From: Paecilomyces variotii
Lineage: Eukaryota
Assembly (NCBI GenBank): GCA_004022145.1
Contig: RCNU01000004.1
DNA: 64,000 nt
Direction: 5' to 3' (one strand)
The notes below the pieces were generated by a model, which searched no databases, was not told the DNA's origin, and was given only the letters and a program-made list of their open reading frames with translations. A program made the position numbers and the translations under genes. This document shows positions 24,661-63,074 of this stretch, piece by piece; position 1 is the stretch's first letter; each line of letters opens with the position of its first letter.

Positions 24661-27303
24661 ATGCCGGACGGTCGTCTATCGCGGCTGCTGAGGGCGAAGC
24701 TGCTGCGGCGATCGTCGACCTCCGCCGTGACCGAGAGAGCAAATAATGGGGCGGATCCGGACATCGAGCCCGACGGGAACTCGAGTTCCAGCTCGCTCTC
24801 CATCTCCTCTCCGCACTCGCGCCGCCAGGGCTCCCAGAGACCCCGTCCCTTTAGTTGCGCTTCGTCGCTGCCGGTCGATTCTCCTGGCGATACTGACTCT
24901 CCTGCCAGTCCTGCTGTCGACCCGGACGCCACCACCGGGCCGGTGCACGATCCCAGTGCGCACCAGGCAGCGCGCGAGGGGGCACTGGGAGCGCGTGCCG
25001 ACGGCCACGACTCGCACGTCGGCCAGAAAGCGACCAGAAGAAAGAGGTTCAGTCTTCGAGATCAGGTTCGAAGTCCAGGACGAGAAACGACCGGTTCCAC
25101 CGTCCCGCCAGACCGCGCCGGCTCTGCGCCCCGGACGCCCACTACCGATCCAGCTTTTACGCCCTCCTCGACCACGTCCATCTCGCGTCCGGTATCAGGG
25201 CAGTCGGACGCATATTCGACCGTCCAGGGTCGGGAACGAGCTGTCTACACTGGCCAGTCTCAATTGAGCCCTCCTACTGTCTCCGTGTCCGAGGCCCCGT
25301 CTCACTCGCAGTCGACCCCGAGGCCTCCTCTCGCACCCGCCACTCCAGGGAACTTCAAACGCCCCAGCATTGCTGTGCGACGGCAGTCCCTCCTCCCACT
25401 CTCCCAGCAGCATCTGGTCAAGAACCTGCTGGAGCCGGGGCTGCTGTCTCAGCACGGGGATCAGTTCTCGAACCCGTTCGCCACAGCACCGCCCGTGATG
25501 GTCACACGTAAGATATGGGTCAAACGACCCGGTGCGTCTGCGACGTTGGTGACTGTGTCGGAGGAGGACTTGGTAGATGACCTACGTGATAATGTTATGT
25601 GGAAGTATCCCAACTCGCTTGGGAAGAGTGTCGACTCCCCAGACTTGCTGATTAGGATTACACCGCGGGAGGGTTCAAACCGTCATGAACGATTACTGAA
25701 TCCGGAGGAGTCCCTGGTCGCCGTTATCGATACCTACTATCCCGGTGGACAGAGTGTACAAGAAGCACTGATCATTGATACCCCTCAGCGACGGACACCC
25801 AGGCCATCGCCCGGTATTTACTACCATCATTCAGAGCCAGGTGAACATGGGGAGTACTTTCCGCTGATGCCAGTTAATGTCAACGTCGGGACCCCTCCAG
25901 CACACGGATCCAGTGCTGTTTCTACGGGGAGCGGCGTAAGTGGTGTACATCAGACTCCCTCGATATCTGTTCTCACGACCGGAAAGGTGCCTCCACTACC
26001 GTCCCCAGGAGGTCGGTCTCATCGACACCAACGCCGGCCTGGTATTCTTCGTCATCCTACAAACTCCCCTACCCTTATTGCATCGGCAGCCGTGGCAAAA
26101 GGTATATTGATCACCAGGTTGTTTGCGCTTTCGAATATATGCTGATACTTTTTTTTCTTTCCTCTAGATGGCACTCCTAGTGTAAATGGTCAGGCTCCAA
26201 CACCTGCACCATCGATTCCGACACCGCCAGCACCCCCACCAGAGTCTCCTCAAGCTAAGAGTCTTACTCCTCCCGCTCGTGGGCCTTCTCCCCGCCCACC
26301 TCGGAAGCCCAAGAAGAACAACGGTGTAACATCCCCCGGAGCAGCTTTCGGTGGACTTATTGAAGGCACTGTCCCGCCGATTAACGTGCTTATAGTGGAG
26401 GACAATGTCATCAATCAGAAGCTCTTGGAGGCCTTTATGAAACGTCTGAGCGTTCGTTGGCAGTGTGCTCCGAACGGCGAAGTGGCTGTCAAGAAGTGGC
26501 GACAAGGCGGATTTCATCTTGTCTTGATGGATATTCAGCTTCCAGTGATGAACGGTCTGGAGGCAACGAAAGAGATCCGGCGGTTGGAGCGTCTGAACGG
26601 AATAGGAGTGTTCTCGAAGACCGCTTCGGGCCGTTCCAGCGCAGCTAGCACCACCGCAACTTCCCCTTCGGAGAATGGCCTACCTGGTTCCCAGAATCAG
26701 TTGAGGGAAGAAGACGTGCTCGAGGACCTGTCGCTGTTTAAGAGTCCTGTCATCATCGTTGCATTGACAGCCAGCAGCTTGCAGAGCGATAGACATGAAG
26801 CCTTGGCTGCTGGCTGTAACGACTTCTTGACAAAGGTGCGTATCTACCTCTTTACTCATTGCTACGGTCGATGCGGGTCTTGCTAACTGCTCTTCTAGCC
26901 TGTTGGATTCCCATGGTTGGAACAGAAGGTGACGGAATGGGGCTGCATGCAAGCTCTCATTGACTTTGAAGGCTGGAGAAAATGGCGAGGATATGCGGAC
27001 TCTGTCCCGTCAATTGGCGTTGCATCTGGCACCGCGGGCAGTCATATTGACAAGGCCGGCGAGCCCATGGCGAAGGCGATAAGCCCCCCTCCATCGACCA
27101 TAACCTCTCCGACGCGAGTAAGACATCGAGCGGCAAGCAGAAGCGGTACGGACAGTGCTCCTATAAGACCAACTGCGGCAGGACCTGTGCTCTCGTCTAA
27201 TAGTGGCAGTACAGGGACAGATTCGCCGGCCAGCTTTACCACGTCGGTGGAGAAAGGAGCAATGTCGCCCGATATTCAGGAATTGGATCGCGAGGACACA
27301 TGA
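24661..27303 (+). CDS. sskA: Two-component response regulator Ssk1/SskA (HOG pathway)
   Basis: KIWVKRPGASATLV...DLVDDLRD...KYPNSLG domain; receiver INVLIVEDN, LVLMDIQLP (phospho-Asp), IVALTAS, GCNDFLTKP; KVTEWGCMQALIDF; introns 26102-26167 and 26836-26898. Confidence 0.93.
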
Positions 27304-28151
27304 CGTGTCTCATGTGCCGTATAAGGAGTCTTTCTAGTCGTTGGTGGTATCTTTGCTTTCTCTTTTTTCGGTCGCATTTTTTATTTATATTTAGCATCAT
27401 GACCGGATACGATTCCCTTCCGGGGTATGATTTCAGATGCTTCCATCCATTCTGGGATTTTTCTTCCGTCTCCTATTATCTATCAGATACCCAGTACAGC
27501 AACTGTCTTTTCTGATTTTTCTGTTTTGTTGTTTTTTTCCAGTCTTACTCTGCATGGGCATATATATTATGTGGCGTGCATATATGCGCAATACTCACGT
27601 ACACGAAGAAAAAGAGTATTATTCTTGCGTCGCTGACTCAGCCTTTTTTTTTATCAATTGTTGTTTCACTTTTCTCTAGTTGTATGCAACCTATTTGTAG
27701 AGCATGGGATGTGATGGGGTCCGATTTCCGTATATGTAATTATCTGATAAAGATTAGGCATGGTTATAGATTATAGGGGACTATAATAATAGTTCCTACT
27801 GGGAAACAGCATATATGATTAAGCACCTGACTAGAAGCTCTGTATATTGACGAAGTTAGTTATAAATTCTAGTATGGATCTTAGAATAGCAAAACTACAT
27901 ATGTAATCTCTGAGCTATCGAGGCGATAAATCAGGACCTTCCTTCCATGCTACTGTGTAAGTATTGCTATTTATCCCAGAGACACTTCAAAAGACACTAA
28001 CTGCTGTAAAAATAAAATATAATAAATAAAGCATAACACATCGCGCCAGATAAGGCATATAGGTAATAGCACAGCTAACTATGTATGTACGAGTCATGAC
28101 CTATTATGTCGCAGCTTGGTAATAATATTAAGTATTATTAGTTAGTACGGT

Positions 28152-28186
28152 TGTCACGTCCTGATGGCCATTTCTTTTCTTTTTTT
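28152..28186 (+). repeat. 35-bp dispersed direct repeat, copy 2 (downstream of sskA)
   Basis: TGTCACGTCCTGATGGCCATTTCTTtTCTTTTTTT; matches 20257-20291. Confidence 0.9.
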
Positions 28187-30252
28187 TGAGATACCATGGT
28201 ACTAACTACAGTATAAATTTAAAAAAAGTTACTTAAACATGACGTATCTTTGAATAAATAAATAAAATAGATCGATGGACCGTGTAAAGAATAAGAAAAA
28301 AAATAGATAGATAGAAGAGTTAATTGTATAATGCTATAGCATCTGAACCCCCTTCCCCTCTCTCTCTCTCTAAGGATAAATAGAATGAATAGAGGTATGT
28401 AATAGCTTAACAGACTAAGAGGTAAGTTAAGTTCTGAATTTGGAGAATTCCCCTGGCAAGCTAGCTATTCAGCAGGAACTTTTATATTTAAAAAATCTAC
28501 AAGAACTACTCTAGTGGATCTTAATACATACTCCATGCATTTCGATATTAGATCTTCTACTACAACTGGTATATAACACCAATTACGCAAATACTCCACG
28601 GAGCAATTCTAATATGTGCGATCGTTCATATATATATACTCGGAGTCATCCTGATATGATATAATGTAATGTGATATTCATCGCTAAGATCTATCTATAT
28701 CTATCTATGGCTTGTACTTATTACAGCTCGAAAGGACCCAAGTAAACCACCACACACATACACCTAGCATGTTTTCTGACGAGGAATGAATTTATCTACG
28801 CGTCTATCTGGGATGATATCTCGAGAATTATTATACCCCGGCCTTCGTCGTCGGCATAGCTATGGTGGAGATCTCATTCCTCGTCTAGATGGAAGGGGAA
28901 GGGTGATCTTTCCACATTTACCTCATCGTCACGTGGGCGATCATGCTCTTCTCTGTACGATTATGGGCCTTTGGGCGTGGGCATATTGGTTCGGATATTA
29001 AAGTCATTGCAGAAGCAGCGAGGGGTGATACGTGATGATGCTGTGTGATCAGATCCATTAGGAGGTGTGGTTTTTTATTTCAACTTGAATTCAGATTTAT
29101 AGTAGGCTATAGATAATTAACTAATTAATCTATACCTTTTGTAGTGTATAGTAAAACTATATATATGTAATATAAATCAAATATATAAATACACAGGTGT
29201 ATAAGTACATTTCCAAAGCCTCTATCTACATCTCACACTGTGAGCAAGAATATAGCATTGATACTACTACAAACAGCAGCAAACACAACCAATATACACC
29301 ATATATAATACCATAGAGTAGGTATTACTCAAATCAGAGAGTAGTACCTACGCAGTATTCAGTCCCCAGAAATAAATACATACATAGTATCCACTACTGT
29401 TTCCAAATATAGAATCCTCCATAAACACCATAAATAACACCCCCTCATACTCCACTCCAGCCCTATGCAAAGGTAGATAAACTAAGAACGCCCCTCCCCC
29501 CTTCCCAGGAACTCTTTCTACCAGGACATGATGCTAGGGACGATCGACCCACCCTGCCAGGGTGGAAGATATTTCTGCCCCTGAAGTCCCGAGTTTGAGA
29601 CAATGGTAAGAACTGCTGATTTGCATGCCGGATGTATTATCCGCGGTGGGGGAAAGGGTCAAGGGGGCCACCTAATCTGGTGTAAGCTGCAAGGTGGTGT
29701 CTGATCGGGAGAGATGATCGTCGAGATCAGATTCGGATGTGATCCGATTCGGTTGTGGGACTTCGTTTATTCGAACTTCGTGCGACTCCATTTGAAGATG
29801 GATGATGTGTTGATGTTATGATTCTGTCCTCTGGAGTAGATGTCAGTCAATGGTGATGATGGAAGTGCTTGGGGAGGAGAAGGGGGAAACAGTGGTGTGA
29901 CTTCTCAGGTTCTGGATTGGGATGAGTAAATATGTTAGGGAATTGACTACAATTTTGCAGGACATTCAGAGAGAAGGGGATAGAATGAAAGGGCGATAGA
30001 CGCCAGGTCAGCGCGTCCCCACCGAGGCGAAAGACGGCTGCTCCGATGACATTTTGTATTAGGTACTAGACATGTATCTTGCACTAGTTCATAGGTCATT
30101 ACAAACATATAAGCGTAAATTTCCGTGGAGAAATCATAAAAGAAGGCGTTGTACATAAATTCAGATGGCCATAACACCCTTGACAAAGGAAAATCGTAAA
30201 AGCTTTTTTTTGTCTTTGTTTTTTCTTTTTTCTTTTTTTTCTTTTTCAATCC

Positions 30253-31368
30253 TCACGCATCTCGCCTTTTCGAGCTGCGCCAGACATTTCTGGGAAGGAG
30301 GTTATCCTTCAGGCAGGAGAGCTCGTTCTGAAGCATGTACTTCTCGTCCTGGAGCTCCTGGATGTACGCCAGCGCCTTGGTAAGGACCTCGGATTTGTTC
30401 TGCGTCTGCGTGCCATCCTTGAGGTTGGTCTTGATACCCTTGCTGTTCATGGAGCTGTTGGACTTGTTGGCACGCAGACTGGGGATGGCGTTGCCCAGAG
30501 CCATGAACTTGGCGTTCATGTTGGTACGGTACCGCTTCTCGACGGCGTTGTGGGCAGCCTTACGCTTGCTGGCAACAGTGTCCTTGGTGTCATCGGCTGA
30601 GTGGGAAGCACGAGAGGAACGCTGCGACGATTTTGATGATGAAGAGGATTTGGCCGACTGCGTCTGAGCAGGGCCCATCATTGGAGAGGGTAGATCACCG
30701 CACTCAGATATGGCGTGTGGGCTCAAGGTCGTCGGCTGGAGGGCTGGAGAGCCTGCAGTGATCTGCTCTGGCGTGACGGGAACCTCTCGACGCAGAGAAG
30801 TTGGACTAGCGAGAGGGGTGTGATGCGACTGGGAATCGAGATCTGACAGCACGGGTGACAGGCTGTTGCCGCTTTGGATGAGTGATAGCGATCCGCCTTC
30901 GCTGTCGAGGTCCTGTAGAGCGATTGATCGTTAGTAATGCGCGCAGTGCGAATCTCGCTAAAGAGGTGATCCACATACGGAAAAGATCGATCCGCAGGAG
31001 AGGTGACGGTCGTTCAGTTGGTTTTGATAAAAGACGGCCTTCGGGTTGGAAGAAGCAGCAGCAGCAGTGTTGTTCATGGAGGTATCCATGGAAAAGTCGA
31101 ATGCAAATGGGTCTTCAGTCGCATCCCAGCGGAACAGATCAGCGTCGCTCAAGGACTTGTCCGCATCAAGATAGTAAAGATCCGACAGCGTTGGAAAGTC
31201 GACGTCTGCAAGAGACATGCGATCTTCAAAGCACGGAGACATGTCCAGAGAATGTCTGTTTAACTGCATGCCACGAGAATAGTTGTCCTGAGAGACGGTC
31301 AGCACCCGATGTTTTTCTCAGGTAAGGGCGGGTGGCGCTGTAACCCCAGACTCAGGAGCACGTACCAT
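30253..31368 (-). CDS. srbB: SREBP-family bHLH transcription factor lacking a membrane anchor (SrbB/SclR-like)
   Basis: Exon 1 is only ATG (31366-31368); introns 31288-31365 and ~30913-30978; basic region KRKAAHNAVEKRYRTNMNAKF carries the SREBP-diagnostic Tyr; helix 2 KSEVLTKALAYIQEL; ends shortly after the zipper. Orthologue versus paralogue not resolved. Confidence 0.8.
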
Positions 31369-32080
31369 GGTCAAAGATGGTTGGAAATCAATTGATCCGC
31401 GAAAGCTAGGGGTTGAAATGACAAGAGGCGCACAGATCAGATGGAGAGACGTTCTGATTGTCAAGATATATCTGAACGGAGGGACTTTAAAGGGCCTTTG
31501 TGTGTTTGATAATACGAGAGAGAGAGAGTCGTGCTCAGGTCCTGGACTGGGACGGGGTGCAGGCAGGCGCTTCTTAAGTACAGGACGCAACGGAGCATGA
31601 CAGCCGTATCGAAGTCCCGACAGAACGGACGGCTCTGTCTGTCAGAACGGAGAGAGGTTGAGACTAAAGCAAAGCTGCTATCGTTCGGAGGCTGTTTCGA
31701 AAAGGAGCTTCCCCGCTGGATCTTGCCATGAGCGCAGTCTGCGGATTATTTGCTCCATGATCAACTTGTCCGAAGGGATCTAGATCAGCATCGAGGACGA
31801 CAGGGAGCTGGGATTGGAGCAGAACCCCTCCAGACGACTCCGGTCCTACCCGGCGACATCAGAAGTCCAGAGTACAGCATGCTAGTTACTCTACGGGACG
31901 ATACGTATTCGCATGTACGAGTAATCGCCCACAATTGCTGTTATTCGGCCAGCAGACAGGGGAGGAGCTGAATCGGATGTGCCGTGTTTGGAGCCGAGAG
32001 GACGGGGAGAACGAAGAGAGTGGTAACTGACAGAAGCAACGATGCTGTCGCCGTTGGGATCCAATCAGTGTGCAAGCTGG

Positions 32081-32168
32081 GATGCTAACAGAGAAGACTA
32101 AGCGATGCTAGCAGATGCTAAGGGATGCTAACTTGACGGCGAGATGCTAATTATGCTGATTGTGCTAA
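32081..32168. promoter_or_regulatory. Array of GATGCTA motifs upstream of the bHLH gene
   Basis: GATGCTA at 32081, 32104, 32114, 32124, 32143; variants ATGCTGA 32153 and GTGCTAA 32162. Confidence 0.5.
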
Positions 32169-33350
32169 ATCGATAGACTCTGGCGCTGATTATGAAAGCC
32201 AGCACTGGATGACTCAGCTCGTGGCGTGCGGCCGGTGCCGATGGTGGAGATCGGCCAAAGGTCGGCGCGTTGTTTCGCGGAGGGCCGGCTCGGGATCAGG
32301 AGAGCGAGAATCAGGCCAACATTATTCTTTTCCCTTCATTCATTCTCCTTCTGCTTCACCTCATCGGAAGCCACCGATCTCACGGCACTGCGCACCCGGC
32401 CGCCCAAATTGGCAACCTGACCATCATGGCATTGGCGACAGGGGGAACGAACCGACTGACTGGCGAACATCACTGCTGGCCAGGATAGGTGTTGTGCATA
32501 CATACCATATGCCAGATGGCATATCTACTCCATACTCTACACGACGTATACAACCAATCCTCTTTCGGTTGCAAAGAACGCGATGGATCAGTGTTAGACA
32601 TGATTTCCCCTGTCTGTTCGACGTCACGACTCAGGCGGTTCCGCGCGGACTGGCCCTCCGGATAATGACCGCCCTCCTAGATGGCGCCTGTTCTCGTTAA
32701 CCCCCCCGTCCTGTCCTCCTATCTCCAGCATCCCTTCGCATTGTTGGGAGACTCTAAGCTCTCATTAATCAATCAGTATGATCATGTGAGCATCCTGGCA
32801 ATGGTTGACCGTATGGGGATCGCGCGCTTAACGTTACTACAACTATCTACCATACGGTCGTTCGATCTGGACTCCTGTCAAACTGATCGCGGGGGCTTCA
32901 CGGACCACATTGAGGCGCCAACGGTGGAGACCAGGAACTCTGCCATCTCCACGAGGGACGATCAATGTCGCTGATCGGCTTATGTACGCCCCCGGAATAG
33001 CTGAGTCATCGGTTCTAGTCAACTTAGTTATCTCACTAGTTAACTTAATTAACTGGACATTACCGTGGATAGGTATCTATCATGGACATGAAGCTACAGT
33101 ACAGAAGTACGAAGCAGATGATGACTTGCGACGATGGAAGCGACCGGACCCATATGTTACAGTATAGAGTTGCATTATTATCTATGATCACTCGCATTAC
33201 GTGTAAAGACAGACAATTTGACTAGAGACTGAACCCTCTACAAGCCGCCCTGTAGCACGCTATCGGCCACTCCCCCAGACAGCATCCTTGCCCCTGCACA
33301 CCCGATCGCAACTTTGCCTAGGAAGACGGCCCTCATAAAATCCGAGCCGC

Positions 33351-34738
<1,388 letters not shown>

Positions 34739-35941
34739 TTTGTTTGAATTGACACCGGCTAAAGACGGCGAGGGGTTTCGTCACGTATTGTCACGGTAAG
34801 GAGTCGGGGAAAAGTATTCAAGAAGCCAAGGACCACTGAAACAGTGGATAGAGATCTGTGTCTGCAAACTATATGAGAGACGCAAGGTGCATGAGCAGAC
34901 CTACGAAGACAGGTACTGGCATTATCTATATAAGTCCTCGTCGATGAAACTACCCAACGTGATACGATACATTCACTGGTTGCTGCATCCGTCGTCCCAT
35001 TATTCAGGAGGGTGATATGATCACCCAACATCGATGGCAAGGGTCGTGGTGGTGGCTAAAAAGACAGCAGCCATTGCAACTTTCTGGGGGGGCCATGGAT
35101 CCCATCCTTGTGGTCTGACAATCCCAACAGATTTAGGCCCGAGACACGTCGTGTGTGCTTTCGTGTTTATTCTACGGTCTTGTTTGATCGTTCTAACCGG
35201 TCCTATTTGGAGTGACAGCGTGTGGACGCAATAGACTTATCGATCGCATCCTGTAAATAAATCGAATCTGACAGTTCGGTCCCGGCCGCTGCATGTGCGG
35301 AGATGGACAACCGCAAGGGTCTCAGGCGCTTATTTTGTCTAGACCTTGACATTGCAAGGGTCCAGTCTAGTTTGCGGCGTTTTGCCATGCATAAAGGATC
35401 TATGGGAAATAGCGCTTCGGACTTGGCCTACAGCTCGAGCACCTTGTGAGGTATGGTAGGCATTTTTATTATGATCTACCAGGTACATGCATTACTCTAC
35501 GATGGATTAGAAGAGTGTATTAGAGGCGGGGTCTTTTAGGCCCATGACAACTGACGGCTGCATGTTCAAGCGAGAATCAATCGGTCTGCTAAATTTACCA
35601 TCTGTAAAATAAAGCCGATGTTTCTCATTGGATCTCCCTTCACCCAGACACTTACCAACTTATGTTTAGCCAAAGCACACTTTAGCCGGAATTTCTAGGT
35701 ACCACGATCACGATCTCCGGGATGGATGCGATCCTCGATGAAAATCTCCGATACATACTGCACGCCACCTCGGCCGCAAGGAAAGAAAATATCCTAGCTG
35801 CATAGAGTATTACTTAATTGCCTAAAAATCATCCTCATGAGTACTACCATATTTCGCTGGGAGAACGGAAAGAAGACAAGCTAATGATTTTCGGTGTCCG
35901 TTTCATCACTAGTATCGTTCAACACTACTCATAGAGTATAA

Positions 35942-35968
35942 GCTTAGCTAGCTAGCTAGCAATCTAGC
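35942..35968. repeat. (GCTA)n microsatellite
   Basis: GCTTAGCTAGCTAGCTAGCAATCTAGC in the gpd-pdc intergenic region. Confidence 0.8.
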
Positions 35969-36635
35969 TTTGGCTATTAATTACCTACAGTACCATAATT
36001 ATATGCTACCTAGTTATCTATGTATTAGCTTCTCTCGGATCATCTCAACCGAACAGCTCACGCTACAGTACGATCGGGTTTTCCCGGCCCGACTCTGTGC
36101 AACTACGAAACATCCCGATTCCAACACCACAAGGATTTCTTTCCCGAGTCCGTTACGGGATAGATAGATGCCGTGTTTGAGCTGCGGTGAAACCGACGGA
36201 ACTTGCCATGAGGGATGTACCTATGTAAGACGGCAATGAGAGATACGATAGTTACCGCACATCGGAGCATGGACGCAGGAACACCATATGATGCGTACAT
36301 GATCCATGACTGGGCTTGCGTTCAGGATGAGATGATTGGGTGGTATGATTTCCAGGATGCTTAATATAGGCATGATCATGGTGGAGGGGCGCAAACAATT
36401 AGAGGTTGGGAATGGGATATTTAAAAGTAATATATGCTGATGAGGTGGGAATCAGAATTGGATTTGATTCACTACCTAATTCTTTTGATTCACAAAGACA
36501 ACTTCACATTCTAGTGAGATAGCAGTTAAGGAGATAGCGTTTATCTGGTGCTTACTGCTGCTTCGAACTATTCGTTTTTACATCTACTCGAGATCTGAAC
36601 AGACCCTATCTAGCTCTCCCCGCAATAGAAAAAAA

Positions 36636-38684
36636 ATGGCTACAGATATAAGGACCGCGGAGCTAAAGTCTCCAGTGGATATTGCGGAGTATCTTTTCAC
36701 GCGTCTGCGTCAGCTGGGAATCAAGTCGATTCAGGGTGTTCCCGGTAAGTATTCTCTATCATTTACTGAAAGTTCGATTTTATAGACTAGGTAACTAATG
36801 TTACTCTGACAGGCGATTATAACCTGGTTGCTCTGGACTACATCCCCAAATGTGGTTTGAAGTGGGTTGGAAATTGTAATGAATTGAATGCTGGTGAGTG
36901 CTTTTTTAATCGAAAAAAAAAAGCCAGATTCAACACCTCGAAAATGATTGGATTAGAGCTAATTATTACTTCTCTTGCGAACAGGCTACTCCTCAGACGG
37001 TTACGCTCGAATCAACGGTATTTCAGCTATCATCACGGCCTTTGGAGTCGGGGAATTATCCGCCATCAACGGTCTCGCAGGCGCCTATTCAGAGCACGTT
37101 CCTGTCGTCCACATCGTCGGTCAACCAAGCACCGTCTCTCAGAGAGATGCCATGCTCCTTCATCACACGCTTGGCAATGGTGATTTCAACGTCTTTTCTC
37201 AAATGAGCGCAAGCATCTCCTGCGTCGTGGCGAAGATCAAAGACGCATATGAAGCTCCCATCCTGATCGACCATGCGCTCCGCGAGTGCTGGATCCAGAG
37301 TCGACCGGTGTACATTGCTCTCCCGACAGATATGGTCCAGAAGAAAGTCGATGGAGAGCGTCTGAAGACGCCTATTGATTTGAAAGAACCGGAGAATGAT
37401 CCCGAGAACGAGGACTATGCAGTTGATGTCGTACTGAAGTATCTCCACGCGGCAAAGAACCCGGTCATTCTCGTTGATGCCGGTGCTATTCGTCACCGCG
37501 CACTTGACGAAGTGCATCGTCTGATGGAGGTCTCGAATCTACCTACTTTTGTCGCGCCTATGGGCAAGGGTGCCGTTGATGAAACCTTGCCCAACTACGG
37601 CGGTGTCTACGCCGGAGATGGCTCGAATGAGGGTGTGCGGGAACGAGTCGAAGGCGCAGACTTGGTCCTCAGCATTGGAGCACTGAAGTCTGATTTCAAC
37701 ACGGCCGGTTTCACCTACCGCATCAGTCAGTTGAACACCATTGATTTCTACAGTGATCGGATCCAAGTCCGATACTCGCACTACCCGCAAGTCAGGATGA
37801 AGGGTGTGCTCCGTAAGGTGATCGAGCGGATGGGCAAGCTGAACCTCCAACCTGGACCAGTCCCCTCGAACAAGGGACCCAATGGCAACTTGATCCATTC
37901 GAAGGATGTCCCCATCACGCACGTCTGGCTCTGGCCGGCTGTCGGCCGCTGGCTGCGCGAGAACGATATCGTCGTTACAGAAACTGGTACTGCGAACTTC
38001 GGGATCTGGGAGACTAGATTCCCGAAGAACGTTACTGCTATCAGCCAGGTTCTCTGGGGTAGTATCGGTTACTCTGTCGGTGCGACTTTGGGAGCTGCTC
38101 TGGCGGCCAGTGAACAGGGAAAGCACCGAACCATCCTCTTTGTCGGAGATGGCAGTTTCCAGATGACGGCGCAGGAAGTCAGCACCATGATCCGGCAGGA
38201 ATTGAACATTATCATGTGAGTAGTCTCCTATTGTTCCTATTATATCGATATGTGAGATATCCAATGCTGACTGCATAAGCTTCGTCATCTGCAATGACGG
38301 TTACACCATCGAACGCTATATCCACGGCTGGGAGGAACAATACAACGACATTCAACCCTGGAATAACAAGGACCTCGTTCCTGCCTTTGGTGCCAAAAAG
38401 GGCCATTACAAAACATACCAAGTTAGAACAGTCAGGGAGATTGAGGATCTATTCGCCAACGAGGAGTTCTCCTCCGCTCCTTTCTTGCAGGTGAGTTTAT
38501 ACTGCCCATCTTCTTTTCTTCAAGAAAAATAATACAGAATCTGACTGATATCCGGCTCTAGTTCGTGGAACTCTATATGCCCAAAGATGACGCGCCCATG
38601 TCTCTGAAGTATACTGCTGAGGCAGCAGCAAAGAGGAATGCGCAGCCAACGACAGCTATGGATGAAGCTTTGCTTCGGCGATGA
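36636..38684 (+). CDS. pdc: Pyruvate decarboxylase (ThDP-dependent)
   Basis: [45 protein letters not shown], ThDP motif GDGSFQ...NDGYTIER; 4 canonical introns; stop 38682-38684. Confidence 0.95.
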
Positions 38685-40186
38685 TTTGGGGTGATGAAGT
38701 TTCCATTCTTTTCACTAATGATGCCCTTTCTTTCCACCTATACTTCTCTTTCTTCCTTGGATTTTTTCCCGAGAACCAAAACCAAAAAAAGAAGATTCTC
38801 ATGATATGATCTGTATAGATATATAGTTTATGCTTTAAGTGGATAATTCATTTACTTATGTCAATCCATGTCCTCAAAGAAAAGTTAGTAGCTTAGCTGT
38901 TAGTGATGTGGATTAGGGACTAGTCTTCTCTTGAAATATCCACATGGAACAATAAACTATGCGGATTAAGCATATTGACCTAACCACCTCTTCAAATAAA
39001 CAATAGTAGAACATGACGCAATAGCATCACCATACACCGATCGAGATCAGCTATAGGAAATAGATCGCAATGAAAACAAGGTTAGATATGGCGTGCCTAT
39101 ACCGAAATTGGAACTATAACTAAACTCGGCGAACATCCCCTCCCGATCCGCAGAGCTCTCTGGCCGCGGGTTCGGTCTATGAGGGGGATGAGTAGCGTGA
39201 TCGCGATCAATACACAACAAAATTTAAACTATCGGGGTTCTCGTAAATATCTAGGTAGTGTAGTGTATGTAAGTAAGGAGGTACTAGTACTGAGAATACA
39301 CGCAGTGTAGCATACGAGAAGGCAAAAAGAAAGCCTTGGGCTCGTGACGAGAAGAGATTTATAGCTTCAAAGGCATTCTTCTATGATAGCTTTTAATTTT
39401 AGCACTCATGAATTGAAGAGCCGGCAGTAGCCGAGGAATGGGTTCTGTTTGGTTTCGTACTCAATGCTGGGTTGATGCTACTCGATGCCAAGCGCACATC
39501 TCATGCTACCTATCCTTCCTAGCATAAGTAGCATCATCCAGAGAATGGAAAAGCCAAACTAAAGTGACTAAACTAAGTCCACGTGTGATGCTGAAACTAA
39601 AACAAAGCTTCCCCGGTCGAGCAATCCGCGCTATCTTGACTAGCTAGGAAGAAAGCTATCGGGGATAGCTGTCATCGACGTCATCTCATTCGACTCCTTA
39701 ACACGGATCGCATGTTCGAAGCTCATTACCTTTCCTTCGGGTCCAGTCGATGCTCACGGGCGGAACCGAACAGTCCACTTCTGCTCTCTTCACCTACGTC
39801 CTCTCGTAGAATTTCTCTGCTCCTCTTTTTGATCTCATGGTGATTGAGAACCCCCGGCAGAGCTTATGATAACGCCCCCCGCACGAGGTAGCTTTACCTA
39901 GGTACCTACCTATTCCGGTACTTAACGTAGCTCTCCGCGATGATGCGATGCGTCCCTGATGAAGGATCGTGAGTGAGAGGCTTGAGCATGAGTCGTATGC
40001 ATACGTGCATCTTCACCGTTTTCTTCTCCGAACGCCAACAGATGGATGCTAGATATTACGAATTTGACCTATCCAGGAAAAAAAGTATATCTACTTATCA
40101 TTCCTGATTTTGTTGGCGATATTCTAACCACTACCTTCAGCTCTCAGACAGCGCCATAAAAAGAACAGAGCGTCCGTTTTGAATCC

Positions 40187-60575: not shown

Positions 60576-63074
60576 CTATTGCAAGAGGCCCTTGATCTCG
60601 CCCACAATACTCTTAATTCTGGGTTCCTTCCCAAGGCCTGCCGCAAGCACCTTATTTAGCAACCCCTGAATATCATAAATTTCCCTAGCCGCAGTCTTAA
60701 CCTCCTCGCCAAGAGAATTGACCAGGGTTCCTGCAGCAACGAGGCCACGGTAGACGGCTTCAGAGTCCTTCTCGTTCGACAGGAGCTTGGTGAGCTCGTC
60801 GAGCAACACGAGCGCCCGTTCTGAGGACTCGGGTGAAGTGTGACGTCCACCAGTGGTTAGGTAAACCGAGTAGTTAATGTAAAGAGTCGTGGCGGCAATG
60901 GTTAGGTTGCGATTTGATGTGTTTCCAGGAGCGGTCGTGACAGACTGCACGATAGAAGTAATTTGATCGAACTTGCCTGCTGTCAAGCTGCGACCCTCTT
61001 CCGTCTCAAAGAGATTGGCGAACATTCGAACAGCGAGCATAACGTTATTCACGTTGAATGGAGGTTCAAAAATACCGCTCGATTGTATAGCCGATATGAG
61101 GTCTTGGCCGTTATAGTCGAGCTTTGCTGTAAGCGGCGTTGCAGCAGCGAGCAACCTGAGAAGATCAAGTCCAGGAAGTCGATTGGCAGCTGGCCAAGCT
61201 GTGGCGACCTTGAACACCAAGCCGACTCCAGTCTCCACGGTAGCCGACTCTTTTAGTCTCTCAGAAGACTCCATTTGTGCGCATAATGCCTGAACTGTCT
61301 CAACTTCGGAAGGACTCAGGGAGACCTCTTTCGAGCCAGAAGATACTAGCTGCTGGTTGACCTCTGCAAGCTTTTTTGAAATCACTTTGAGGTTAGCGGA
61401 TCTAATGGAGAGGTATGATGTCTGAGGTAGCACTTTTGGCCGCTGCGCTGGTACGGAGGTTGCTTGGCTAGCAGCGGTGGCATCTCCTGGACGATAACGG
61501 TGTTCTTGGCCCCATGGATCGGCCCCTGTAGGTTGCTGTTCTGTTGTTTCACCGATGGTAGTTCCTTGAGTGTTTTCCGTGATGAATCTTGCGACTTGGT
61601 CCAGATATCCGATAGGAAGTTCGTTGTCTTGGATAAACTTGGTAGCTGCTTCATAAGGATTCTGGGATACATTATATGGCAGCTTCAGCGGAGGTTTGCC
61701 GTCCTCGATATCCACATCGAAGACATAGTCGTACTCTTGACCAAGATATTCGATTTTCCTCCCACCGCTACCGGCGGCATCCACAACAGTTCCTACAGCG
61801 ATCCACTCTTGTGTAGCTGATGACCACGTGTGAGCGGTGATGCTACCATTTTCCTCTCGAATCATCTGCACCTGCCCTTCCTTTGTGCCAGACTTCTGTT
61901 TGAGGAACTCAGGACCAGGGAGCTTTTCCTTGTTGATATTTCCGACTTGCTGTTGAGGAATCGCAGACTCCTTGACGGCGTTGTCGAACTGCTGTATGAG
62001 GCTCTCGTCTCCTTGGCGCTCCTTTTCTCGACTGAATACTCTCGTGACCCGATCACTAGCACCTGTGACGATGTCGCCAGTCTCCTGACAAGCAGCCACA
62101 CTCCATACTGAAATGGCAGGGTGTGTGATCGTCTGGACACATTGTGTGCCGTTCCAGATTCTGACAGTTCGATCCTCGCCTGAGCTGACCAGTTCACCGG
62201 TAGGCAGCGATGCCAAACAGTATATGAAACTTTCGTGTCCATGCAATTCACCTACTATCTGACCTTGCAAGGTGAACAGTCGGATTATGCCATCGTTGCT
62301 AGCAGACGCAAATTGGGCGCCCGTGGGGTTGGACGAAGGAACCTTGCAGAGAGCTCTTATGACCTCGGGCGAGTCCTTGATGCTCCGTAGAAGCTTTCCA
62401 GAGGTATTAAATACACGAATTATCTTGTCCGCGCATCCTAAATAGATGTAAGTAAGTTAAGCAGGGCGTAGACTGCTTCGCCGCCACGTACCGGTGATAA
62501 CGGTGTCCTTATCGTAAGCTAGGACAGCCCAGACACTGCCCTGATGTCCCTCAAATACCACTTCAGCTTCCCAGTTACCAAGCCTCCATAGTCTTGCTGA
62601 AGTATCCCAGCTTCCGCTCACAATCCAACCGCCCTCCGGGCAGACATCCAAGGCACAGACATTGTGAGCATGACCAAGTAGCATAGCATCCGCATTGTCT
62701 CCAACGGCCTTTCCAGGTTGTTTGGCTTCTATTATAGTATCTTGTCCACCAGAGAAGATAAGTCCTTCCGGGAACTCGGGGGTGGGTGGATAGTACGCCA
62801 GGGAGTTCCTGAAAGCCGATCCAGAAGAGGAGATGGTATAGTCATAGGCGGGGGGCGGGGTAGACACAAGCTTCCAGATACGAACTGTTGTATCGCGGGA
62901 GGCAGACAAAACGACATTGGGGTTTGGAAATGCCACCGCGCGAACCTATATGGACAGTAATCGATCAGCATCCAACAGCCCTCAATCCCATCGCGAATAG
63001 TGTTATCGAGCAGGAGGGGCCCTTACATCATCGCTGTGGCCCTCTAGGGCCGCAGAGATCTTGAAGTCAGGCAT
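60576..63074 (-). CDS. doa1: Polyubiquitin-binding Cdc48 cofactor Doa1/Ufd3/PLAA (WD40-PFU-PUL)
   Basis: MPDFKISAALEGHSDD/VRAV, WD40 repeats, PFU YDYVFDVDIEDGKPPLKLPYN..NPYEAA, PUL WP...RLPGLDLLRL; two introns. Confidence 0.93.

Follow-up and report, generated by a model that had tools for sequence, protein, structure and literature searches.

A neighborhood of three consecutive genes was analyzed in a 64-kb stretch of DNA from Paecilomyces variotii (contig RCNU01000004.1 of assembly GCA_004022145.1; hereafter the window). The genes encode a basic helix-loop-helix (bHLH) regulator of the SREBP (sterol regulatory element-binding protein) type, a divergent glyceraldehyde-3-phosphate dehydrogenase (GAPDH-B), and a pyruvate decarboxylase (PDC-B), and they form a real, partly conserved neighborhood of a regulator and paralogous enzymes (Table 1). 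Gene models were spliced by hand from the window sequence and then checked against annotated proteins. The bHLH model agreed with P0121, an annotated protein of P. variotii, at 323 of 323 positions, GAPDH-B with P0001 (DTO027B5_1224, from another strain) at 335 of 337, and PDC-B with P0174 (DTO027B5_1223) at 583 of 584, while single-exon queries of all three genes returned 100% matches to these same proteins. Each of the 12 introns (two in the bHLH gene, six in GAPDH-B and four in PDC-B) has GT..AG borders, and every frame is closed. Consecutive accessions and an open reading frame (ORF) scan of the window indicate no further annotated gene inside the trio, and GAPDH-B and PDC-B are transcribed head-to-head with 1897 bp separating their ATGs. 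An earlier note on this DNA, made from the letters only, had described three consecutive genes at nearly these coordinates, with the decarboxylase head-to-head with the GAPDH; the spliced models, together with the RNA joints described below, bear this description out.

Table 1. Genes and intergenic regions of the three-gene neighborhood, in window coordinates.
Feature	Position	Strand	Details
SrbB/SclR-family (probable) SREBP-type bHLH-zipper gene	30253..31368	minus	exons 30253-30912, 30979-31287, 31366-31368; 323 aa
bHLH upstream / GAPDH-B downstream region	31369..33350		bHLH 5' leader, GAPDH-B 3' untranslated region, spliced plus-strand transcript
Divergent GAPDH (GAPDH-B)	33351..34738	minus	7 exons; 337 aa
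Divergent 1.9-kb promoter common to GAPDH-B and PDC-B	34739..36635		without RNA cover at 35047-36478
Non-canonical pyruvate decarboxylase (PDC-B)	36636..38684	plus	5 exons; 584 aa

When seven ORF pieces of the trio were scanned against Pfam, four had matches. The bHLH piece matched HLH (PF00010; E = 1e-11 and 44.9 bits, the cut-off being 20.7), the GAPDH-B pieces matched Gp_dh_N (E = 6.6e-21) and Gp_dh_C (E = 1.3e-52), and the PDC-B piece carried the N, M and C domains of the TPP_enzyme families (PF02776, PF00205 and PF02775, respectively). The catalytic cysteine motif of GAPDH-B reads SMASCTTNC. Three features of exon structure were also observed: the first coding exon of the bHLH gene (31366-31368) is a bare ATG followed directly by a 78-nt intron; GAPDH-B contains a 14-nt micro-exon (34554-34567) flanked by introns of 62 and 60 nt, seen in the RNA contigs of runs X5, X6 and X13 as 14 letters inside a 136-nt skip; and intron 3 of PDC-B (38216-38279) ends in AAG, a rare acceptor that the spliced contigs of three runs confirm.

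RNA support was obtained by placing Logan contigs of four sequencing runs on positions 30100-38800. All 12 introns were spliced out in contigs of three of the four runs (X5, X6 and X13, from three studies); X5 carries a pure-culture label and was guessed to be RNA, and X6 and X13 are food-fermentation metatranscriptomes. The fourth run, X1, yielded one 12.8-kb contig that was unspliced and is therefore attributed to DNA present in the RNA library. Five more runs labeled with this species, X20-X24, were guessed to be RNA; they contained almost none of the words of the stretch, which could mean that the whole trio is silent in them, and they were not used as evidence. The mRNAs of all three genes were present in each of the three runs with spliced contigs, which is a statement of presence and not of level: depth in contig runs cannot rank genes, and the similar contig depth of GAPDH-B and bHLH was not interpreted. 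Given intact models and splice joints in three runs, the bHLH gene, GAPDH-B and PDC-B are real, intact, transcribed genes. Their transcripts in food-fermentation metatranscriptomes fit a low-oxygen niche, in runs that were themselves found using this very sequence.

Identities for PDC-B were calculated over a 409-aa exon among the best 120 matches listed. The closest relatives were proteins of Thermoascus crustaceus (VTN00DRAFT_6060, 85%), a Logan protein (84%), and Rasamsonia byssochlamydoides (VTN77DRAFT_2882, 81%), and the remaining listed matches, canonical PDCs from many classes, were 72-76% identical. A second P. variotii PDC (P0243, DTO021D3_4484) was 73% identical to PDC-B. A 35-row tree, drawn from two cluster mates and 33 of the 120 listed matches (unrooted, being without an outgroup), contained a PDC-B clade with an SH-aLRT support of 100, comprised of the window protein and those of P. 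lecythidis (_4213), strain No. 5, T. crustaceus, the Logan row, R. byssochlamydoides, and Aspergillus nomiae (P0272). This clade lies outside the canonical PDC clade (support 100), which follows class phylogeny and includes P0243. An approximately unbiased (AU) test rejected the union of the PDC-B clade with the canonical Eurotiales PDCs as one clade (delta log-likelihood 24.6, p = 0.0049), for a group that was named after the tree was seen and that involves long branches. Individual strains carry both PDC types (e.g. DTO166G4_262 with _6517, and DTO164E3_6269 with _7974). PDC-B is an extra paralog that falls outside the clade of canonical PdcA proteins, these strains having their canonical PDC at another location, and it is patchily distributed, occurring in few genera among the 120 matches listed.

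GAPDH-B was compared over a 228-aa exon with the best 120 of 8000 matches. Outside P. variotii, four listed proteins were 88-91% identical, a JGI protein (P0007) was 79% identical, and canonical GAPDHs from many classes were 75-79% identical. The divergence of this GAPDH, already remarked upon in the earlier note, is thus upheld: beyond Paecilomyces and four near-relatives, no identity among the 120 matches listed exceeded 79%. Over the full alignment, GAPDH-B was 73-75% identical to canonical GAPDHs; it was 73.9% identical to the GAPDH of T. aurantiacus, compared with 80.4% between the latter and an Aspergillus GpdA. When three cluster mates and 34 of the listed 120 were placed in a 37-row tree, the rows from Paecilomyces (window, P. 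lecythidis and strain No. 5) sat together with a Logan row on a long stem outside a 32-row canonical clade (support 93) that spans Eurotio-, Dothideo-, Lecanoro- and Sordariomycetes and includes Thermoascus of the same family. P0007 formed a further long branch on the GAPDH-B side of the split. Nine sites invariant in 20 canonical GAPDHs were changed in at least three of the four rows of the Paecilomyces clade; among these, the sites of T102K and N148M (the latter two residues before the catalytic Cys) were changed in P0007 as well. The sequence retains the NDPF stretch that we take to belong to the NAD site. GAPDH-B is a divergent lineage found almost only in Paecilomyces among the matches listed, and it is taken to be an extra copy from its position in the tree rather than from a count of copies.

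The bHLH gene encodes a protein whose basic region, HNAVEKRYRTNMN, includes the tyrosine, replacing an arginine, that is the hallmark of SREBPs according to the accessible part of Chung et al. (2014; PMC4223079). The maximum 19-residue Kyte-Doolittle mean was only 0.53 over the 323 aa, and the protein therefore lacks a membrane span. Relatives numbered 53 among 249 candidates, and a tree of 39 rows was built from 37 of these and two cluster mates, with 16 short, fragmentary or near-duplicate rows left out. The tree mirrors the species tree, uniting Paecilomyces with Thermoascus (99), Rasamsonia with Talaromyces (98), and Aspergillus with Penicillium (99), and every named species outside Paecilomyces has a single copy in it. 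In Paecilomyces, one or two additional SrbB-like paralogs were observed (P0134, P0128 and P0129, each 300 aa, and P0126, 279 aa, from strain No. 5); these extra copies fall within the Thermoascaceae clade. The A. fumigatus member of the family, P0345 (KAH1344840, 300 aa), has the tyrosine and contains no anchor-length sequence, and its cluster mates include proteins with the same product name as AFUB_099590 (SrbB) and an A. udagawae protein labeled 'sre2'. The accessible part of the same paper states the similarity of SrbB and SclR (PMC4223079). On sequence grounds, the family is probably SrbB/SclR. The earlier note had called the gene an SREBP-type bHLH with the tyrosine and without a transmembrane domain, and an SrbB-like regulator; basic region, Pfam match and hydropathy agree with the former, and the family tree and features support the latter as SrbB/SclR-like, the identity with SrbB itself being probable.

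In fungal genomes, the genes of glycolysis and fermentation normally lie apart from one another. Linkage in relatives was read from consecutive GenBank accessions or locus tags. The order bHLH-GAPDH-PDC was found in many P. variotii strains (e.g. KAJ9220261/62/63, KAJ9196065/64/63 and KAJ9218398/97/96) and in P. lecythidis (KAL1878916/17/18; Plec18167_004211 is the bHLH and _004213 the PDC). In strain No. 5, the GAPDH (GAD97609) and the PDC (GAD97608) are consecutive, and the bHLH is on a contig of equal size. In R. byssochlamydoides the bHLH (VTN77DRAFT_2881) adjoins PDC-B (VTN77DRAFT_2882), and in T. crustaceus two genes separate the bHLH (VTN00DRAFT_6057) from PDC-B (VTN00DRAFT_6060). No GAPDH-B was found at the Thermoascus or Rasamsonia locus in a search that would miss GAPDHs annotated outside 125-399 aa; the Thermoascus GAPDHs found are canonical and located elsewhere, VTN00DRAFT_3318 on another contig and KAL2220448 of T. 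aurantiacus, whose bHLH is KAL2220007. PDC-B thus lies within three genes of the bHLH in three of the four named genera that carry it, the fourth being represented by A. nomiae. By accession order, the three-gene unit is specific to Paecilomyces and the bHLH-PDC-B pair occurs in two other genera as well; the linkage across relatives asked about in the earlier note is seen for P. variotii, P. lecythidis and strain No. 5 and, in R. byssochlamydoides and T. crustaceus, for the bHLH and PDC only. Because the pair is present in the latter two genera without GAPDH-B, it is older than the trio as seen. GAPDH-B may have been added in Paecilomyces or, if P0007 and the bHLH P0144 share a contig, lost elsewhere; each of these two proteins comes from a 124,889-bp JGI contig, possibly one and the same, which would be a fourth instance of linkage. 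A metagenome scan with P0144 returned only one unrelated 1.5-kb locus. The carriers of the locus are heat-tolerant molds.

What such a regulator might do is suggested by A. fumigatus. In the accessible part of Chung et al. (2014), RNA-seq of a delta-srbB mutant relative to wild type gave log2 changes, at 30 and 120 min of hypoxia, of -3.3 and -6.8 for pdcA, -9.7 and -11.7 for pdcC, and -4.5 and -6.9 for lactate dehydrogenase, together with -6.6 at 30 min for phosphoenolpyruvate (PEP) synthase and -12.6 at 120 min for alcC (PMC4223079). SrbB was induced within 15 min of hypoxia and was the main activator of alcC (PMC4223079). Control of PDC genes by the SrbB family is established; control of a GAPDH is not.

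The arrangement, shared in part by related heat-loving molds, suggests, short of proof, a small self-regulated fermentation gene cluster, and the low-oxygen fermentation module proposed in the earlier note is supported in part. The reading that we tentatively prefer, while granting it somewhat less than even weight, is that of a conserved neighborhood of a regulator and its likely target, in which isozymes are activated when oxygen is limiting. Gene structure, expression, paralogy and linkage stand on solid ground; a function of this kind is plausible by analogy, from which we infer that the bHLH controls its neighbors, that hypoxia is the trigger, and that the enzymes catalyze the normal GAPDH and PDC reactions. 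Under this reading, the link between bHLH and PDC-B would predate the divergence of Paecilomyces, Thermoascus and Rasamsonia, and the Paecilomyces locus holds GAPDH-B besides, on the divergent promoter common with PDC-B. Limiting oxygen or otherwise impaired respiration would induce the bHLH, which would activate both neighboring isozyme genes from the common promoter as well as dispersed fermentation genes (canonical pdcA and an alcC-type alcohol dehydrogenase). The outcome would be added glycolytic and pyruvate-to-acetaldehyde capacity for the regeneration of NAD+.

Several observations weigh against this reading. The identification of P0345 as SrbB is probable and is based upon product names and features rather than an accession match. 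In A. fumigatus, srbB has a tannase and a hypothetical gene for neighbors; in the accessible data of Chung et al., gpdA was barely SrbB-dependent (+0.56 and -0.91; PMC4223079). Because of these two findings, the SrbB family is seen to work unlinked and is not known to drive a GAPDH. PDC-B, as judged by sequence, is not an ortholog of the SrbB-dependent pdcC. In the accessible part of Grahl et al. (2011), A. fumigatus pdcB and pdcC are 39% and 33% identical to A. nidulans PdcA (PMC3141044), compared with 73-74% between PDC-B and canonical PDCs, and PDC-B is therefore of neither the pdcB nor the pdcC type. The SrbA sterol regulatory element (SRE) consensus RTCABSCCACY occurs once in the 64 kb and not in the two promoter regions, and none of the 26 CACGTG copies of the window lies in the two promoter regions, the SRE and E-box scan thus revealing no enrichment there. 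Concerning the enzymes, the earlier note had asked whether they are extra paralogs: by tree this held for PDC-B, with a second PDC in the same strains; for GAPDH-B the divergence held, and the best 120 of 8000 GAPDH matches did not include a canonical gpdA of P. variotii, leaving a residual possibility that GAPDH-B is an accelerated ortholog of the housekeeping GpdA. Finally, genes that stay adjacent in related genera may do so simply because the synteny was inherited.

It is accordingly possible, and we give it appreciable weight short of belief, that the genes are neutral neighbors: a genome-wide SrbB-type regulator beside spare copies of PDC-B and GAPDH-B that remain adjacent through undecayed microsynteny, with no regulatory tie. 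The absence of a linked PDC at A. fumigatus srbB and of the SRE motif from the promoters favors this explanation, as do the missing GAPDH-B at the locus in two other genera and the restriction of the linkage to Thermoascaceae and one Rasamsonia species. It accounts less readily for the finding that both enzymes are non-housekeeping copies of steps of one pathway served by a common divergent promoter, for the proximity of a patchily distributed PDC-B to the bHLH in most of the named genera that carry it, and for a known regulon of the SrbB family that includes PDC genes.

A further explanation, which we consider unlikely, is that GAPDH-B and PDC-B are a stress-proof pair that replaces enzymes damaged by nitrosative, oxidative or heat stress, with an optional role for the bHLH. 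The nine changed canonical-invariant sites of GAPDH-B, including N148M, would suit such a role, as would the heat tolerance of the carriers and the transcripts in food-fermentation metatranscriptomes; the retained NDPF stretch, on our assumption about the NAD site, speaks against it. The model for this role is GpdC of A. nidulans, which, according to the accessible part of the source, is 47% identical to GpdA, prefers NADP, and acts together with pdcA and alcC to sustain glycolysis and ethanol fermentation under reactive-nitrogen stress (PMC11502334). Since GAPDH-B is 73-75% identical to canonical GAPDHs, it is not a GpdC and belongs to a different lineage.

It is very unlikely that PDC-B is a broader 2-oxo-acid decarboxylase of the Ehrlich type (fusel or aromatic alcohols) and that the locus serves amino-acid catabolism. 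The thiamine diphosphate (ThDP) fold family does include indolepyruvate and branched-chain keto-acid decarboxylases, and one chain that bears the name branched-chain 2-oxoacid decarboxylase reaches the scores of the yeast PDCs; in addition, pdcB and pdcC of A. fumigatus add little to ethanol production in the accessible part of Grahl et al. (PMC3141044). The nearest solved structures are nevertheless PDC chains of Kluyveromyces lactis and Saccharomyces cerevisiae (426-442 bits), compared with approximately 230 bits for indolepyruvate decarboxylases, and the identity of PDC-B to canonical fungal PDCs over the 409-aa exon is 72-76%. Barely credible, and rejected here, is the idea that GAPDH-B is the self-resistance enzyme of a hidden GAPDH-inhibitor cluster, as HepG is for heptelidic acid: resistance copies that share approximately 72% identity with the housekeeping enzyme have been described, but the HepG-type signature (Thr to Ala two residues before the catalytic His, and AF to SV in the active site; accessible part of PMC8162069) is absent from GAPDH-B, which reads MTTVH and GMAFRVP, the HepG structure 6m5x scored 349 bits compared with up to 381 bits for ordinary GAPDHs, and no terpene cyclase, cytochrome P450, polyketide synthase (PKS) or nonribosomal peptide synthetase (NRPS) domain was found in the scanned ORFs of the 64-kb window.

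The intergenic regions contain several further features. The 5' leader of the bHLH mRNA reaches at least position 31946 (approximately 580 nt or more, 31369-31946) and might hold upstream ORFs or other translational control. The GAPDH-B poly-A site lies near 33150, as indicated by loose poly-T contig ends at 33149-33155. Between these genes, a low-depth plus-strand transcript extends over 32370-33073 and beyond, with a GT..AG joint (32983>33073) seen in X5 only; an ORF check of 32370-33073 gave no convincing ORF, and the transcript may be a non-coding RNA running antisense into the GAPDH-B 3' end. All three window copies of CTACAGTAC (33094, 35985 and 36063) fall within the two promoter regions, and all three window copies of GACCCTTGC (35037, 35313 and 35354) fall in the GAPDH-B/PDC-B promoter. 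The few 8-9-mers common to both promoter regions in a de novo k-mer search come from a single species and are therefore without meaning. The divergent promoter also contains a short (AGCT)n-like run at 35945-35960. The X1 contig represents a variant strain that differs in the segments 35425-35615 and 36919-36976, with small insertions at 35545-35612 in this promoter and a 6-base deletion at 36919 in PDC-B intron 2.

The trio is located in a moderately gene-poor 13 kb flanked by ordinary genes. No ORF of at least 110 aa was present in 27.3-30.2 kb or 38.7-40.4 kb, and the GC fraction was 0.39 at 28-30 kb; the gene-sparse segment of the earlier note is thus roughly right. An AT-rich, ORF-poor stretch (27800-30250) lies 3' of the bHLH gene, with an A-rich run at 30203-30252 that was passed over as a repeat when contigs were placed. 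Across the 64 kb, 73 further ORFs of at least 110 aa were scanned, of which 17 had Pfam matches, all of housekeeping type: a spermidine-synthase-like protein, a protein kinase, and an AMP-binding enzyme, as well as SET, SH3, response-regulator and RING domain proteins, Bot1p, RRM, and YjeF_N. Among the flanking genes are a response-regulator receiver protein (26146-26883) and a Doa1/PLAA-like WD40-PFU-PUL protein (60579-62945). As the earlier note had remarked, an alcohol dehydrogenase is not visible, no such domain being detected in any scanned ORF of the window.

In its strongest form, the cluster reading holds that an ancestral srbB-PDC-B pair has grown in Paecilomyces into a self-contained, switchable, stress-proof 'fermentation island' of spare paralogs on one divergent promoter, which we regard as rather unlikely. 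If true, this would be the first glycolysis/fermentation cluster with an SREBP-type regulator inside it, and it would give heat-tolerant food-spoilage and fermentation molds a stress-proof route from glycolysis to acetaldehyde, with a GAPDH-B altered in the neighborhood of its active site (N148M). To our knowledge, it is poorly defined which genes SrbB-type factors target directly and what site they bind, and a regulator beside two candidate targets with a compact 1.9-kb promoter would offer a natural test bed for DNA recognition by SrbB. Furthermore, the locus could reveal how additional isozymes of central metabolism come into use when oxygen is low or under stress, and how primary-metabolism clusters are born, with a conserved pair and a third gene in one genus. 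P. variotii finds use in bioprocesses for mycoprotein and in ethanol-related ones, and as a heat-resistant mold it spoils food; dedicated fermentation isozymes would therefore be of practical interest. If the genes are not co-regulated, the locus would represent mere retained synteny among paralogs.

Fungal primary-metabolism clusters with their own regulator exist, including the A. nidulans alcR-alcA ethanol cluster, qut/qa, and prn. The earlier note was not aware of any description of a cluster of this kind. This stands for a srbB-PDC or GAPDH-PDC cluster, none of which was found described in a literature search that had most subscription journals outside its reach, and it does not stand for regulator-containing primary clusters as such; because of alc, qut/qa and prn, the organizational claim is less novel. 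The locus combines known kinds, namely regulator-containing primary clusters and extra GAPDH isozymes such as GpdC and HepG, and is not a new category. As in alc, qut/qa and prn, a transcription factor gene is in physical linkage with genes for the enzymes of a single primary pathway. Alc, qut/qa and prn serve catabolism, and experiments have shown their genes to be co-regulated; the present locus combines an SREBP-type bHLH with paralogs from central glycolysis and fermentation, and any co-regulation of its genes is putative.

Gene by gene, the bHLH resembles A. fumigatus SrbB (AFUB_099590) and A. oryzae SclR, being a small, soluble SREBP-type protein with the tyrosine, a C-terminal bHLH-zipper and no membrane span, at an identity of 44-50% across approximately half of a 219-aa last-exon query; it differs from SrbA in having no transmembrane segment. 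Paecilomyces has extra bHLH paralogs (P0134, and P0126 in strain No. 5). In A. fumigatus, srbB is unlinked to any PDC or GAPDH. PDC-B shares the three ThDP-enzyme domains and the 72-76% identity with canonical PdcA (A. nidulans AN4888, A. fumigatus AFUB_038070, and the yeast Pdc1 structures), but it belongs to a separate, patchy clade, and strains that have it carry the canonical gene as well. GAPDH-B is an alternative GAPDH isozyme as GpdC is, the tie of the latter to ethanol fermentation being with pdcA and alcC under stress. HepG/GpdB is a GAPDH copy clustered with heptelidic acid genes, whereas GAPDH-B has neither the HepG changes nor biosynthetic neighbors.

Concerning DNA recognition and clustering, the accessible part of Chung et al. 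only raises the possibility of an SrbB-specific site, and it reports an SrbA chromatin immunoprecipitation (ChIP) peak at a PEP synthase gene (PMC4223079) that belongs to a group of adjacent A. fumigatus genes, AFUB_062460-062480. This group consists of PEP synthase, lactate dehydrogenase and pdcC, all among the most SrbB-dependent genes in hypoxia in the accessible data, and it is possibly an unremarked pyruvate-metabolism cluster. It is similar to the P. variotii locus in its adjacent pyruvate-metabolism genes, for which the log2 changes in delta-srbB were -4.5 to -11.7 in the same data. In contrast to the P. variotii locus, its regulator is encoded elsewhere, it contains no GAPDH, and its pdcC is a distant PDC type, at 33% identity to PdcA in the accessible part of Grahl et al. 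(PMC3141044).

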